From Candidatus Saccharimonadota bacterium (lineage in GTDB: Bacteria; Pseudomonadota; Gammaproteobacteria; Enterobacterales; Enterobacteriaceae): a stretch of DNA of 8,946 bases. The notes beneath the pieces are model-generated. The model made no database searches and was not told where the DNA came from. It worked only from the letters and a program-made list of their open reading frames with translations. The position numbers were made by a program, and so were the translations under genes. The stretch spans positions 193,500-202,445 of the forward strand of contig NZ_CP046218.1 in the NCBI RefSeq assembly GCF_012571345.1, written 5' to 3'. Each line of letters starts with the position of its first letter. Position 1 is the stretch's first letter. Of this stretch, positions 1-6,412 are shown in pieces.

Positions 1-1094
1 GCTTTAATAATAGCAACCATAAACACACCATGTTCAAAAACATATTGTTCTGTTAATATATTTTTTTCACTAACAATATTTTCAAAACTATGTTGTTGAT
101 ACTGTTTTCTCCATGTTAATAAATTTATATCATTATTTTCCCAATCAGTTATCATGTTTTGTGAAAATGTTCCAGATATAATATCATCCATATGTATTTT
201 GAACAACGGTTGTAATATTTTTTTTAATCGCATAGATAAGTAATATGCATGTATTTTACTCATATTATCTAATCGATCCATCATTAAACTTATTCCACCC
301 TGTTTTAAGGCTTCAGTAATATATTCCCAGCCGTATTGAATTAATTGTGAAGCAGTTATAGGTTTAACATGTAGACTAATAAGTTTATCATAAAATATCA
401 TAGAAGCTGTTTGTAGCATACCACATAATACTGTTTGTTCACCCATCAAATCAGATTTAACTTCTGCAGCAAATGAAGATTCTAACACACCTGCTTTGTG
501 ACTACCTATAGATACAGCCCAAGCTTTTGCTATTTCTAAAGCATCATGATCATAATTATTATGAATAGCAATTAATGCTGGTACCCCAAAACCACGTTGA
601 AATTCTTCTCTTACTTCTGTGCCTGGACATTTTGGTGCTACCATTATTATATTAATATTACTTGGAAATTGCTCGCCTTCTTCAATAATATTAAAGCCAT
701 GTGAATATCCTATTGTAACTTTTTTTTTTAATAAAGGTTTAATATTTTTAAAAACTTTTTTATGTTGTTTATCTGGTGTTAGATTAATAATTAGATCTGC
801 ATATGGTATTAGTTCTTGTATAGTTCCAACAACAAAATCATGTTTTTTTGCTCTTTGCCATGAAATATTTTTATATATAATCGCATTCCTTGTTAGAACA
901 TATGAAACATCTAATCCAGAATCTCTCATATTTAATCCTTGATTTAATCCTTGCGCACCACAACCAATAATAACAATTTTTTTATTTTTAAGAATTTTAT
1001 TCCCTTGTTCAAATTCTTTATTTGTCATTAAACGCGATTTTTGCAATGTATTTAATTTTTCACGGAAGTTTAAAGTATTAAAATAATTATTCAT
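1..1094 (-). CDS. ilvC: ketol-acid reductoisomerase, N-terminal ~364 codons; the 3' end lies beyond the left window edge
   Basis: It is absent from the ORF track because it is open to the window edge. The reverse complement from ATG 1094..1092 reads [65 protein letters not shown] and stays open to position 1 (last residues ...[17 protein letters not shown]). This is collinear with E. coli IlvC (MANYFNTLNLRQQL...[23 protein letters not shown]...EQEYFDKGVLMIAMVKAG). An AAGG lies about 11 nt upstream of the ATG. Confidence 0.93.
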
Positions 1095-1204
1095 AGATAT
1101 AGCAACCTTCTATATATAGTACTGATAAACACTAATATATTTATCATAATAATAAAAATATTCTTTGTTTATTAAACATTATATAAATCAAAAATTTTTT
1201 ATCA

Positions 1205-1230
1205 ATAATGTTTTTATATAAAAACATTAT
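1205..1230. repeat. perfect 26-nt palindrome ATAATGTTTTTATATAAAAACATTAT in the ilvD-ilvC spacer; possible intercistronic hairpin, function unknown
   Basis: All 13 position pairs are complementary when checked base by base. It starts 11 nt downstream of the ilvD stop on the transcribed (minus) strand. A third copy of the 9-mer AAACATTAT lies at 1174..1182. The stem has only one G:C pair and no adjacent U-run, so a terminator role is unproven. Confidence 0.5.
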
Positions 1231-1240
1231 CTAGCATATA

Positions 1241-3097
1241 TTATTTATAGTACTTAAATGTATTAAGATCCCTAATAGCACCTTTATCTGCACTTGTTAC
1301 GAAAGCAGCATAAGTTTGCAATGCAATAGAAATATTTCTTTTACGTTTTTTCGGGGTATAAGCTTTTATACCTCTATTTTTTTCTTTGTGTATTCTTTGA
1401 GTAATAACATCGTGAGATATTTTAAGATTAATAGTACGTTGCGGTATATTAATTTCTATTATATCATTATTTTCGATTAGAGCTATTAAACCATGATTTG
1501 CCGCTTCTGGAGATATATGTCCGATAGATAATCCTGATGAACCACCAGAAAAACGACCATCAGTAATTAATGCACAGTTTGTATCTAATCTCATAGTTTT
1601 TAGATATGATGTAGGATATAACATTTCCTGCATTCCTGGACCTCCTTTAGGTCCTTCATATCTAATAACTACTACATCACCAGGAATAATATGTTTATTT
1701 AAAATAGCTTTTACCGCATCTTCTTGACTTTCATATACTTTAGCTTTACCAGTAAAAATCATTAACTTGTTAGGGACACTAGCTGTTTTCACTACACAGC
1801 CATGTTTTGCAATATTACCATATAATACCGCTAAACCACCATCTTTACTAAAAGCAGAATCATAAGATCTAATACAACCAATTTTTCTATTTGTATCTAA
1901 ATTATGAAAAAATTTGTTTTGTGAAAATGGTTGTATAGTTTTTATATTACCTGGCGCAGAAGAAAAAAAGTTTTTAATATCTTTATTATGTGTGATAGTA
2001 ATATCATATTTCATTATTGTGTCATATAAAGTTACATTCATAATATTTTTTACAGTAGCATCTATTAAACCTATTTTATATAGTTCATTTAATAAACTTA
2101 TAACACCGCCAGCTCTATGAAAATCTTCCATATAATATTTTTTTGTACTAGGTGATAACATACATAACCAAGGTACTTTTCTAGATAACATATCTATTTC
2201 TGATAAATTTAAAGATATTTTAGCTTCATGTGCTAATGCTAACATATGTAAAATAGTATTAGTAGAACCACCCATAGCAATATCCATTGTGATGGCATTA
2301 ATAAAAGCTGATTTATTAGCAATATTACGAGGCAAAACATCAATATTATCTTCTTGATAATATTGATGTGTAATATTAACTATGGTTTTGCCTGCTAGCA
2401 TACATAAGTTTTTGCGGTTTATATGTGTTGCTAATAGTGTACCATTACCTGGCAGTGCCAAACCTAGTGCTTCCGTAAGACAATTCATAGAATTTGCTGT
2501 AAACATTCCTGAACAAGAACCACATGTAGGACATGCATTATCTTCAATATTTTTTATGCTAGATTTAGAAAATTTTGTGCTACCTCCATATATCATGGCA
2601 TCAACTAAATCAATTCTTTGTTCCTGGGAATTTATATATATTTTACCTGCTTCCATAGGACCCCCAGAAATAAAAACTGTAGGTATATTTAAACGCAAAG
2701 AAGCCATTAACATTCCAGGAGTAATTTTATCACAATTAGTAATACAAATCATGGCATCTACACAATGTGCATTAATAACATATTCTATAGAATCTGCAAT
2801 AAGTTCTCTAGATGGTAAAGAATACAACATACCACTATGACCCATAGCTATACCATCATCAATAGCTATTGTATTAAATTCTTTTGCAATAGCACCATTT
2901 AAAGTAATTTCTTTAGAAATTATTTTAGCTATATCTTTTAAATGTATGTGTCCAGGTACAAATTGGGAAAATGAATTAACTATGGCAATAATAGGTTTAT
3001 TAAAATCATCATTACGCATACCAGTAGCTTTCCATAATGCTCGAGCTCCAGACATATTACGTCCTTGTGTTGTTGTTGATGAACGATAAATGGGCAT
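1241..3097 (-). CDS. ilvD: dihydroxy-acid dehydratase
   Basis: This 618-aa ORF is collinear end to end with E. coli IlvD (616 aa). The N-termini match ([27 protein letters not shown] vs [27 protein letters not shown]). Conserved blocks include [63 protein letters not shown] and ITDGRFSGG. Confidence 0.97.
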
Positions 3098-3223
3098 GAT
3101 AATCTCGTTTTATAAGTAAAAAAGTATATATTAATATGTTTTAATTAATTTTAGTAAGTTTTAATATTTCTTGCTAATATATAAAAATAAATTTTTTTGT
3201 ATTTTGTTTTTATATATATTATT

Positions 3224-4041
3224 TTACCTCTACTAATAATTACTATATTAGTAATTTTATGTATAAAATATTTATTATTATGATAAATATTTCATTTATT
3301 TAATAGTTCTTATACAACATAATTTTCATAAATAAAAATTGAAAACATACTGTAAGTGCAAAATACTATAATAAGTTATCATCCTAAAAAACAGTATATA
3401 AAACTAATACAATATGTTTTTTAATCATGAACATATTTTTGTTAATGCTTTAAAAAATAACATCTAAAATGATTTCATATATTTTTTTATAATCACTATA
3501 TTCATGATACATGTCCCTACATATATACCAATTATAAAAATCATTTCTAATATTTTATATTATCATCATTATATGATTGCTATTATGTTTTATACCATTA
3601 CTAAATTATCATATTATTTTTAATAATAATATTACTATAAAAACATACTAATCATGATATGATTAAAATAATCTTTAGTATTTACAATATTGATTCTTAT
3701 TTTATTTATATGAAATAGAATTTTGATATATATTGCTGTTAAATAATATATTTTTATAAATTCATACGTAATATTAATGTGTTTACTAACAAAAAATTAT
3801 GTAAAATAATAATGCATTTTTATATTATAAAAAACATATTTAATATAATTTGCATGATGTTAAACAATAAATATTTTATAAAGGATTATAACATAATCTC
3901 GGACTATGTAAAATAACAACACTATAATTAACTATGTATATTATAATATTCATTATAGATTATTTATATCGAATCATATCATTGTATAACTAAATTAAAT
4001 TTGTTTTTTTTTATAAAAATTAAAATATTTGCTTATGTCAT
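3224..4041 (-). pseudogene. ilvE: decayed branched-chain amino acid aminotransferase gene (ilvE remnant); boundaries approximate
   Basis: It occupies the ilvE slot of ilvG-M-E-D on the same strand, and the 970-bp gap compares with about 930 bp for enterobacterial ilvE. The track shows no ORF on either strand. Minus-strand reading of 3790..3638 gives 51 stop-free codons (VSKHINITYEFIKIYYLTAIYIKILFHINKIRINIVNTKDYFNHIMISMFL). These align without gaps to E. coli IlvE residues ~76-126 (IDELMEACRDVIRKNNLTSAYIRPLIFVGDVGMGVNPPAGYSTDVIIAAFP) with 9 identities, clustered as LTxxYI(K/R)xL. In the same frame, 3529..3484 GIYVGTCIMNIVIIKK matches GYISEGAGENLFEVKD, and 3322..3299 LCCIRTIK matches RCGPVTKR. 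A candidate start ATG at 4041, 26 nt after the ilvM stop, is followed by TAA at codon 3. There are more than 20 in-frame stops and at least one frame change near 3880..3912. Confidence 0.6.
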
Positions 4042-4067
4042 ATTAAAAGATAAAAATGATATTTAGA

Positions 4068-4298
4068 TTATTGGATCATGATATTTTTTACATCTATTAG
4101 TTTAGAAATTTGTTGTACTAATAAATGTATAGATTTATAGCTCTTAACTATAATATAAAAGATAATATTATTATCTTTTTTTATTGTATTCATATTTATA
4201 GAACATAATAAATATCCTCTATGACGTATAATCCGTATAATACGTTCAGTAATTTCAGGAATAATATTGGTGATTATATATAATTGATATTTTTTCAT
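4068..4298 (-). CDS. ilvM: acetolactate synthase II small (regulatory) subunit
   Basis: The 76-aa ORF starts immediately after the ilvG stop (TAAATG). It aligns without gaps to E. coli IlvM residues 1-76 (PEITERIIRIIRHRGYLLCSINM vs PETLERVLRVVRHRGFHVCSMNM; KLIDV vs KLVDV). It lacks the last ~11 residues of the 87-aa E. coli protein. Confidence 0.85.
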   Translation of the reverse strand: MKKYQLYIITNIIPEITERIIRIIRHRGYLLCSINMNTIKKDNNIIFYIIVKSYKSIHLLVQQISKLIDVKNIMIQ

Positions 4299-5975
4299 TT
4301 AATCATTCTCTATCATATTATCATTACTTTGTCCAGGTGGTACTAAAGGCCAAACATTGTCATTTTCATTGATTTTTACATGTAATATATAAGTATTTTT
4401 CACTGAAAACATTTTTTTTAATCCTAAATATATTTCAGATATTTTTTTAATACTTGAACCTAATATGTCAAAAGCACTAGCTAATTGTAAAAAATTAGGA
4501 TTATCATTTAATATAGTCTCACTATATCTTTGGTTAAAAAATATTTGCTGCCATTGACGAACCATACCTAATCTTTGATTATCTAATAATACAATTTTAA
4601 TAGGTAACTTTTTTCTTTTAATAGTATTTAGTTCTTGTATATTCATCATAAAAGAACCATCACCAGAAATACAAATTACTGTATGTTTAGGATAAGCTAT
4701 TTGTGCACCAATAGCTGCAGGTAAACCAAAACCCATAGTTCCTAAACCACTAGAAGTAATAAATTTTCTTGGATGTTGAATATTAATATGTTGCGCAGCC
4801 CACATTTGATGTTGACCGACATCGGTAGTAATAATAGTATTCTTAGGCATTATTTTTGATAGTTTGTTTAAAAATATAGGAGCAAAAATTTTTGTATCAT
4901 TACAATTATCATTATAATTCCAAGTATATTTTTTTTTTATTATGCTTACATAATTTAACCAAGATCTGATATTTTTAGGTTTGATCAATAAAGGGATGTA
5001 ATCATTTATATCACCCAACAATTTTACATGTGCTAAACAAATTTTATCAAATTCTGCAGCATCAATATCTAAATGTATGATTTTAGCTTTATTAGCAAAT
5101 GTTTTAATATCACCAGTAACGCGATCATCAAATCTAGCACCTATAGCAATAAGAAGATCACATTTTTGTACTGCAATATTTGCTGCTTGATTACCATGCA
5201 TTCCTAACATACCTAAATAATAAGGATCATCATATAAAACTACACCTAAACCTTTTAGTGTTACTACGGTAGGTATTTTTGTATATTGGATAAATTGTCG
5301 GAGTATGTCTACGGCATTGCTTAGACTAACCCCTCCACCTATATACAATATAGGCATATTCGCTTGATATAACATTTTATTAACTTTATGTATGTCATTA
5401 TTAATATAAAATGTTTTTTTATTTTTAATTTTAGTAGTTTTATGACTATTTTGTATAGCATTTATATTTTTAAATAATTGTATATCTTTCGGTATATCTA
5501 TTAAGACAGGTCCAGGACGATTAGATAAAGCAATATCAAAAGATTGAGTTAGTATAGAATATAATGTTTTTGGATCTGTAATTAAAAAACTGTGTTTTGT
5601 ACATGCTAAGGACATGCCTATAATATCTATTTCTTGAAAAGCATCGGTACCAATTAATGATAATGGTACTTGACCTGTAATAGCAATAATAGGAATAGAA
5701 TCCATCATAGCATCTGCAATTCCAGTAAGTAAATTAGTAGCACCAGGTCCTGAAGTAGCTATGCATACTCCTATATTTCCAGTGGCTCGTGCATATCCAA
5801 TAGCTGCTATTGCTGCTCCTTGTTCATGTCTGCATAATACATGTTCTATATTAGAATGATATAATGCATCATATAATGGCATAATGGCACCACCAGGATA
5901 ACCAAAAACTATTTTAATGTTATGTTGATATAATATTTGTACTATATATTCTGCTCCATTCATATTAATTTTCAT
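4299..5975 (-). CDS. ilvG: acetolactate synthase II large (catalytic) subunit, intact
   Basis: The 558-aa ORF is collinear with full-length E. coli IlvG. Conserved blocks include MNGAEYIV (vs MNGAQWVV), [87 protein letters not shown] and VWPLVPPG. The E. coli protein begins at the position of the second Met here, so ATG 5963 is an alternative start. GAGGT directly abuts the ATG at 5975. Confidence 0.95.
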
Positions 5976-6162
5976 ACCTCAATGTATATAATTATTAATA
6001 AATTATATGTATATTCTATGCAACATTGTTTTTTAAGAATCTAGTAGGAATATTTTAAATATTTATTTATTATAATTTAATATATATTTAAAAAATTTTA
6101 AATAAAATTTATTTTTTATAGAATTAATATCAGATTTTTTATGAAAAGTATATTATTTGTTA

Positions 6163-6235
6163 CAGGGGTGGAGGGATTTGAACCCCCAACTACCGGTTTT
6201 GGAGACCGATGCTCTACCGTTTGAACTACACCCCT
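6163..6235 (-). tRNA. trpT: tRNA-Trp, anticodon CCA; 3' CCA not encoded
   Basis: The reverse complement is AGGGGTG TA GTTC AAACGGTA GAGC A TCGGT CTCCAAA ACCGG TAGTT GGGGG TTCAAAT CCCTC CACCCCT G. It folds into a full cloverleaf with a perfect 7-bp acceptor stem and the anticodon loop CU-CCA-AA. It is near-identical in architecture to E. coli tRNA-Trp, including the U11:G24 pair and discriminator G. The downstream bases are TAA, not CCA. Confidence 0.93.
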
Positions 6236-6412
6236 ATATGTATTTATAAATAAAATCTTTTTTTTACATTATATAACACATATATTTTTTTTATCAATAT
6301 AGAATATACAATATGTTTGTTAGAAAAGTAAAATTTTTGGTTGACATTTATATTTAAGGTAGTACAACATAAGGATACTATATATTTAAACTATTTTCAA
6401 TGATATTAAACC

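Follow-up and report, generated by a model that had tools for sequence, protein, structure and literature searches.

What has become of ilvE in a bacterium that keeps ilvG, ilvM, ilvD and ilvC side by side on one strand and shows no reading frame where ilvE would be expected? The question is raised by a stretch of 8,946 nucleotides (nt) from contig NZ_CP046218.1, hereafter the window, in which the interval between ilvM and ilvD (3098..4067, 970 nt, on the minus strand like the operon around it) is the longest stretch free of open reading frames (ORFs), every ORF within it being of 45 amino acids (aa) or less. An earlier note, made from the letters of the window without database searches, had proposed that this gap is a near full-length ilvE pseudogene, on the ground that it is the only long non-coding stretch in the window and has the position, the strand and about the length of ilvE. 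The analysis presented here bears out both the proposal and the observations of layout behind it. We consider it almost certain that the gap is a dead, near full-length remnant of ilvE, here called psi-ilvE (3127..4019, minus strand, collinear with IlvE columns 1-309), lying at its ancestral site in an ilvG-ilvM-ilvE-ilvD-ilvC cluster.

The IlvD protein encoded in the window shows 100% identity to the one annotated for the Enterobacteriaceae endosymbiont of the reed beetle Macroplea mutica. Its identity falls to 94% with IlvD from the M. appendiculata symbiont, and to 70-77% with the IlvD of most symbionts of Neohaemonia, Donacia and Plateumaris. Reed-beetle symbionts of this kind are placed in 'Candidatus Macropleicola' and have genomes of ~0.46-0.52 Mb.

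Traces of IlvE between ilvM and ilvD

We compared the neighbourhood of ilvD in the symbionts of M. appendiculata (L082), Neohaemonia nigricornis (L083), Donacia thalassina (L084) and Plateumaris pusilla (L085). In the last three the slot between ilvM and ilvD is filled by an intact ilvE, which encodes 308-309 aa and an Aminotran_4 domain (PF01063), and the distance from the stop of ilvM to the start of ilvD is 1009-1012 nt, against the 970 nt found here, so that the gap can be taken as the positional equivalent of ilvE and two short spacers, ~42 nt shorter. The M. appendiculata symbiont has a gap of 884 nt at this place, without a called gene. In position, strand and length psi-ilvE therefore matches the intact ilvE of other Macropleicola, such as that of the N. 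nigricornis symbiont (L083:5041-5967).

The similarity itself was measured with a clade profile built from 14 Macropleicola IlvE proteins, which hmmsearch ran over the six frames of the gap with stops masked. The best domain, covering profile positions 46-133 on the operon strand, scored 18.1 bits, and the highest score among 1000 dinucleotide-preserving shuffles, likewise searched in six frames, was 5.2 bits (mean -1.85, standard deviation 1.24). The next two matches share this strand and are collinear with the first, profile positions 3-44 lying upstream of it in another frame and positions 268-308 near the 3' end. A frameshift-aware aligner of profile to DNA by dynamic programming (DP), purpose-written for this analysis, gave the gap a score of 127.4 against 34.7±4.5 for its shuffles (maximum 55.5, n=500; z=20.7), along a path that pairs profile positions 4-309 with window positions 4010..3127; the reverse complement of the gap scored 28, which is shuffle level. 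With the same aligner the gap of the M. appendiculata symbiont scored 70.7 against 35.0±4.8 for shuffles (z=7.4). Frameshift-tolerant alignment against shuffled controls, the check that the earlier note had named for its proposal, thus gives a real score beyond all shuffles. Default tblastn, with its composition correction on, also finds the gap: 10 of the 14 queries place IlvE 46-125 on 3880..3641, with E values down to 8e-6, and one query places IlvE 271-309 on 3243..3127 (E 0.04).

The DP score was specific to IlvE. The IlvE of the Neohaemonia symbiont reached 120 and that of E. coli 65, where 20 shuffles of the latter protein gave no more than 36. Scores of 28-50 were obtained with the Neohaemonia symbiont's IlvG, IlvM, IlvD, IlvC, CarA, PurH and Fpr, with PurH and Fpr of the window, and with E. 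coli IlvA. A gene family fitting the gap better than IlvE was looked for among these proteins, in Pfam and in Rfam, and none was found.

How much of the gene can still be read differs from block to block. The N-terminal block (3885..4013, minus strand) carries IlvE columns 3-44 in the original frame; it is the part recovered by hmmsearch at profile positions 3-44, in frame +1, with stops at columns 10 and 20, and when profile positions 1-45 were aligned by DP as a separate block the score (z=4.0) was reached by 0 of 200 shuffles and the match ended at gap position 183. A +1 frameshift after column 45 (3878..3881, minus strand), common to the M. appendiculata symbiont, separates it from the best-preserved block (3641..3880, minus strand), which holds columns 46-125 with in-frame stops at columns 52 and 73 and with 33% identity over 80 aa by tblastn; here the block DP of profile positions 46-133 gave z=14.9, with the match ending at profile position 125 and gap position 427. 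At the other end of the gene, the C-terminal block (3127..3255, minus strand; columns ~268-309) is the hmmsearch match at positions 268-308, in frame +3, with a stop at each of the two tryptophan columns, 301 and 303, and the block DP of profile positions 261-309 (z=5.1, 0 of 200 shuffles) ended at profile position 309 and window position 3127.

Between these blocks lies a region that has lost its IlvE character. The segment expected to hold columns ~126-178 (3498..3640, minus strand), including the pyridoxal phosphate (PLP) lysine at column 160, is unrecognisable, with a block DP z of ~0, and the position of the lysine codon reads TTT at offset 0. Profile blocks 126-190 and 226-265 likewise align at chance level (z ~0) and off the collinear diagonal. 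A weak trace is present at 3405..3497 (minus strand), where columns ~179-209 (EGAGEN..KIKNHIL) would lie: it falls on a DNA diagonal at offset +16 that scores highest among 801 offsets (z=4.3), and protein block 190-215, which covers the same motif, ends on the expected diagonal with a score reached by 12 of 300 shuffles. The block boundaries chosen initially had split the EGAGEN..KIKN motif, and the new boundaries yield only a marginal signal, so that this middle trace is suggestive only. As judged from the sequence, then, the first ~125 and the last ~40-50 codons are recognisable, and the middle with the PLP-lysine block is not.

Collinearity over the gap as a whole was followed at the DNA level by an ungapped, information-weighted diagonal scan of the gap against the three intact loci over 801 offsets. 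The collinear diagonal is the best of the 801 offsets in many windows, with offsets of +4, 0, +16 and +38 along the gap, which shows collinearity over its entire length. Between 3588 and 3497 these offsets record a net loss of ~16 nt, and a second one, of ~22 nt, lies between 3408 and 3257; the total is ~42 of 1012 nt. The N-terminal, middle and C-terminal blocks follow one another as in the intact Macropleicola genes, and similarity, position, strand and length all agree with homology to ilvE by descent.

Some of the finer readings of the earlier note fare less well than its main proposal. It had named three collinear IlvE-like fragments in one frame extending over at least 320 nt. The first, 3790..3638, falls within the significant block, while the other two, 3529..3484 and 3322..3299, fall in the chance-level middle and the frame of the last is off the collinear diagonal; the continuous frame spans 240 nt only (3880..3641). 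It had placed a change of frame near 3880..3912, which is real and lies at about 3881..3878, and its statement that the PLP-lysine block cannot be recognised agrees with the block DP. The ~20 codons that it supposed to be missing around 3575..3553 give way to the net loss of ~16 nt between 3588 and 3497, and its tally of more than 20 stops in its frame is right, our count being 34.

Lesions, age and mode of decay

Those 34 stops lie in the main frame of the gap, and each of the frames contains dozens. At 4019..4017, where IlvE column 1 lies, ATT stands in place of ATG. An uninterrupted ORF, a start codon and the PLP lysine, by which a functional class IV aminotransferase gene would be known, are thus all missing, and psi-ilvE differs in this from the intact Macropleicola ilvE, to which its best block is 33% identical at the protein level: it is without a start codon and a recognisable catalytic lysine, and has its main-frame stops and at least one ancient frameshift.

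The lesions are informative about age since many of them recur in the sister symbiont. Both Macroplea remnants have stops at IlvE columns 10, 20, 52, 73, 301 and 303; each also has an insertion of one codon behind column 41 and the +1 frameshift that follows column 45. From these common stops, insertion and frameshift it follows that the inactivation predates the split of the two Macroplea symbionts. Over 869 aligned positions the two remnants are 86% identical. For comparison, ilvD and ilvM together show 88.3% identity between the same symbionts at third codon positions and 96-97% at first and second positions. Conservation along the remnant is uniform, at 78-92%, and the only raised stretch is ~20 nt before the start of ilvD. 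Taken together, an identity near the third-position level and uniform conservation indicate that the remnant evolves neutrally. Its composition points the same way: the content of guanine plus cytosine (GC) is 14.6%, against 24-27% in intact Macropleicola ilvE, 9.5-15% at third codon positions in the window and 11-15% in the other spacers.

The direction of change was counted at sites identical in the three intact genes. Of 94 such G/C sites, 75 (80%) are now A/T, against a change from A/T to G/C at 36 of 293 A/T sites (12%), and the commonest of the G/C-to-A/T changes in the remnant are G>A and C>T; the bias that the earlier note had read from single codons is therefore real. So is its view that the gene erodes by point mutation rather than deletion, in that 970 nt are kept against 1009-1012 nt in the relatives. 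In the M. appendiculata symbiont (L082:5117-6000) a further ~90 nt have gone (one deletion of 62 nt, one of 24 nt and some smaller), within the equivalent of window positions 3742..3648. These losses hit exactly the part of IlvE that the M. mutica symbiont has preserved best, so that deletional erosion continues independently in the two lineages.

The same comparison overturns one part of the earlier proposal, that the inactivation was comparatively recent. A two-state decay model, fed with the fraction of ancestral G/C sites retained (20%) and with the divergence of this G/C class between the two remnants, puts the loss of constraint at ~5-8 times the age of the Macroplea symbiont split, an estimate that is crude and whose underlying alignments favour matches. 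The lesions common to the sister symbiont, a GC content at the level of the spacers and the two-state age all mark the pseudogene as old, and aligning the orthologous locus of a related strain, as the earlier note had suggested for dating the loss, puts it before the split. The remnant thus places the loss before the split of the Macroplea symbionts and after the split from the Neohaemonia symbiont: ilvE was inactivated in the common ancestor of the former two, and has since decayed mostly by AT-biased point substitution with a few small indels, its length nearly kept. Lesions common to the sister, a neutral rate and a neutral composition are together what is found in a unitary pseudogene decaying in situ, and the loss of ilvE went by slow mutational decay in place, not by excision. 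As demonstrably neutral DNA, the remnant can also serve for the study of the mutation spectrum and deletion rate of this symbiont.

An apparent second case was examined at the ilv locus of the D. crassipes symbiont (CP046202.1), where IlvE is a 'partial' protein of 270 aa (2501..3311) and ilvG (626..2223) is split into two ORFs. The locus contains 189 N, the coding sequence resumes in frame beyond the N runs, and independent decay of ilvE there was ruled out, the apparent lesions being caused by the N runs.

Other readings of the gap and the genes around it

The alternative that survives best accepts the remnant as ilvE and gives it a second life: a full-length remnant might be kept for a non-coding job, as a promoter or long 5' leader for ilvD-ilvC or as a small RNA. 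We think this unlikely, but there are several reasons for stating it. The supplements of PMC12508126 report RNA-seq expression as per-gene counts, and in the M. mutica symbiont the baseMean values are 1191 for ilvG, 15 for ilvM, 6803 for ilvD and 7026 for ilvC, with a similar rise from ilvG/ilvM to ilvE/ilvD in D. marginata. Such a step downstream of ilvG suggests an internal promoter, either in the remnant or upstream of it, in which case the dead ilvE may be a transcribed leader; the low ilvM counts, for their part, may be a counting artefact of a short gene abutting ilvG. A near-consensus sigma-70-like site is present at 3912..3885 (minus strand; TTTACA, a 16-nt spacer and TATAAT with an upstream TG, 11/12), no terminator-like site was found in the gap, and the length has been nearly kept despite the long estimated decay. 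In the M. appendiculata symbiont the -10 element of this site is conserved and the -35 element is weaker.

Against a retained job, promoter-like sites occur in the gap at chance frequency, 43 being found where 42.2 are expected, in a promoter and terminator scan that is uninformative at 15% GC. No Rfam family matches, and the M. appendiculata symbiont has deleted ~90 nt from the middle of the remnant and retained ilvD. Conservation does not rise above that of third codon positions, and forms no island besides the last ~20 nt before ilvD. This last stretch lies in the former ilvE-ilvD spacer (3098..3126, minus strand), where a 21-nt run abutting the start of ilvD is identical in both Macroplea symbionts; the spacer includes the sequence AACGAGA, a putative ribosome-binding site of ilvD. 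What calls for an account is that 96% of the length is kept though constraint was lost long before the Macroplea split. Either the rate of deletion in this symbiont may be unusually low, or, as a long shot, the remnant acts as a promoter or ~1-kb leader for ilvD-ilvC, which, if true, would make it a pseudogene exapted as a regulatory spacer.

A second alternative denies the remnant altogether, holding that ilvE was deleted, that an unrelated AT-rich spacer was later filled in or expanded, and that the IlvE-like fragments are chance matches in low-complexity translations. At 14.6% GC any translation is indeed rich in I, K, N, Y and F, and several results weigh against psi-ilvE and on the side of chance. 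Pfam, searched in six frames with stops masked, gives no family at E <= 10. With E. coli IlvE as the query, default tblastn on the window leaves the gap unmatched even at E < 100, a null that we attribute to a query too distant for an ungapped single-frame search. A DNA profile of the three intact ilvE regions finds no match by nhmmer in either Macroplea gap. The middle third of the gap is at chance level, and at the protein level the central ~45% of the gene (IlvE columns ~126-260) is indistinguishable from chance, so that homology there depends on position, length and one weak DNA diagonal. The DP aligner can dodge stops via frameshifts, and for this reason its exact path, with the 9 stops and 6 frameshifts counted along it, is soft outside the strong blocks. 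On the functional side, compensation by a host branched-chain aminotransferase (BCAT) is an assumption of the literature.

Even so, we regard an origin by chance as very improbable, since the controls with shuffles, with the reverse strand and with other proteins all refute it. No shuffle reaches the real score, neither the 1000 scored by hmmsearch nor the 500 scored by DP. The three blocks are separate and stand in the right order, strand and spacing, the other AT-rich proteins of the Neohaemonia symbiont and the window do not match, and the length of the gap equals that of ilvE with two spacers less 42 nt. The simple information-weighted diagonal scan, moreover, succeeded where nhmmer gave nothing. 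Generic annotation misses pseudogenes as eroded as psi-ilvE, which a profile of close relatives still detects.

That errors of sequencing or assembly produced the stops and frameshifts, or that recoding overcomes them in expression, is scarcely credible, even if another genome of the same set, that of the D. crassipes symbiont, has truncations that are N-run artefacts, given that the lesions are common to two independently sequenced genomes, that dozens of stops occur per frame beside intact flanking genes on the same strand, that neither the start codon nor the catalytic-lysine block survives, and that the window is without N.

The genes on either side of psi-ilvE, which the earlier note had called strongly conserved, bear this out: ilvG, ilvM and ilvD are intact and ilvC is open as far as it lies within the window. 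All are on the minus strand. The first, ilvG (4299..5975), encodes the large subunit of acetolactate synthase II as an intact ORF of 558 aa whose orthologues in the relatives carry TPP_enzyme_N/M/C domains. The small subunit is encoded by ilvM (4068..4298), also intact at 76 aa, which E. coli IlvM matches by tblastn with 37% identity (E 6e-10) and whose orthologues carry ACT_5. The 48 nt that follow (4020..4067, minus strand) are the former ilvM-ilvE spacer, at offset +4 from the 52-nt spacer of the intact relatives. Beyond psi-ilvE, ilvD (1241..3097) is intact with 618 aa and 64% identity to E. coli IlvD, and the 5' part of ilvC (3..1094) is open, matches residues 1-366 of E. coli IlvC by tblastn with 59% identity and extends beyond the window. 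The plus strand of the window holds purH and fpr.

Upstream of the ilv cluster, between purH and ilvG, there is a tRNA-Trp gene with anticodon CCA (6162..6236, minus strand), to which the Rfam tRNA model gives 65.8 bits and on which ARAGORN concurs; Rfam and tRNA scans of the ilvM-ilvD gap gave no match. No leader-peptide-like ORF of at least 20 aa is found on the operon strand upstream of ilvG (5976..6161), and an attenuator of the ilvL type, if present there, is not obvious. The sole Rfam match in this interval (minus strand) is SAM-SAH, at 19.9 bits and E 0.78, below threshold and probably due to chance.

The pathway without ilvE

The loss of ilvE is already published, and what this analysis adds is the readable remnant alone. 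In both Macroplea species, according to Reis et al. (2020, Nat Commun 11:2964, PMC7289800), the symbionts have lost ilvE and the rest of the Val/Leu/Ile pathway is intact; these authors assumed that host enzymes compensate for the loss. A later study (EMBO Rep 2025, PMC12508126) repeats the loss, leaves the M. mutica cell for ilvE empty in its orthogroup table and suggests a transfer of regulation to the host. The word 'pseudogene' is absent from the main texts of both papers, the supplement of the former mentions pseudogenisation for metB only, and the term 'BCAT' is absent from PMC12508126. Among the database matches listed there is no IlvE from either Macroplea symbiont, and many other reed-beetle symbionts have one. 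Our result therefore concerns the same organism and gene and arrives at the same conclusion as the published one; what is undescribed there is a collinear, near full-length remnant in situ with lesions common to both species. Considering the fact that the biological conclusion is published, the surviving remnant is a small addition to it.

With ilvG, ilvM, ilvD and ilvC in place, the symbiont can be presumed to supply the 2-oxo acids that precede Val, Leu and Ile, and the final transamination would fall to another aminotransferase, probably the BCAT of the host, as pathway knowledge and the literature would have it. The earlier note had likened such a hand-over to that between Buchnera and its aphid hosts and had supposed it independent, an idea that agrees with statements in both papers (PMC7289800, PMC12508126).

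The two systems differ in that the Macroplea symbiont is of another lineage and lives in a beetle, and from this different lineage and host we take its loss of ilvE to be independent of that in Buchnera. They differ also in that the acetolactate synthase of the Macroplea symbiont is ilvGM, and in that a host BCAT is there only assumed. To our knowledge Buchnera has no detectable remnant of ilvE. What the two have in common is a symbiont that lacks the terminal transaminase, in the Macroplea case by the published account, and in which the upstream ilvC and ilvD are kept, and in the aphid case this division of labour has been proposed to give the host control over flux (literature cited in PMC12508126).

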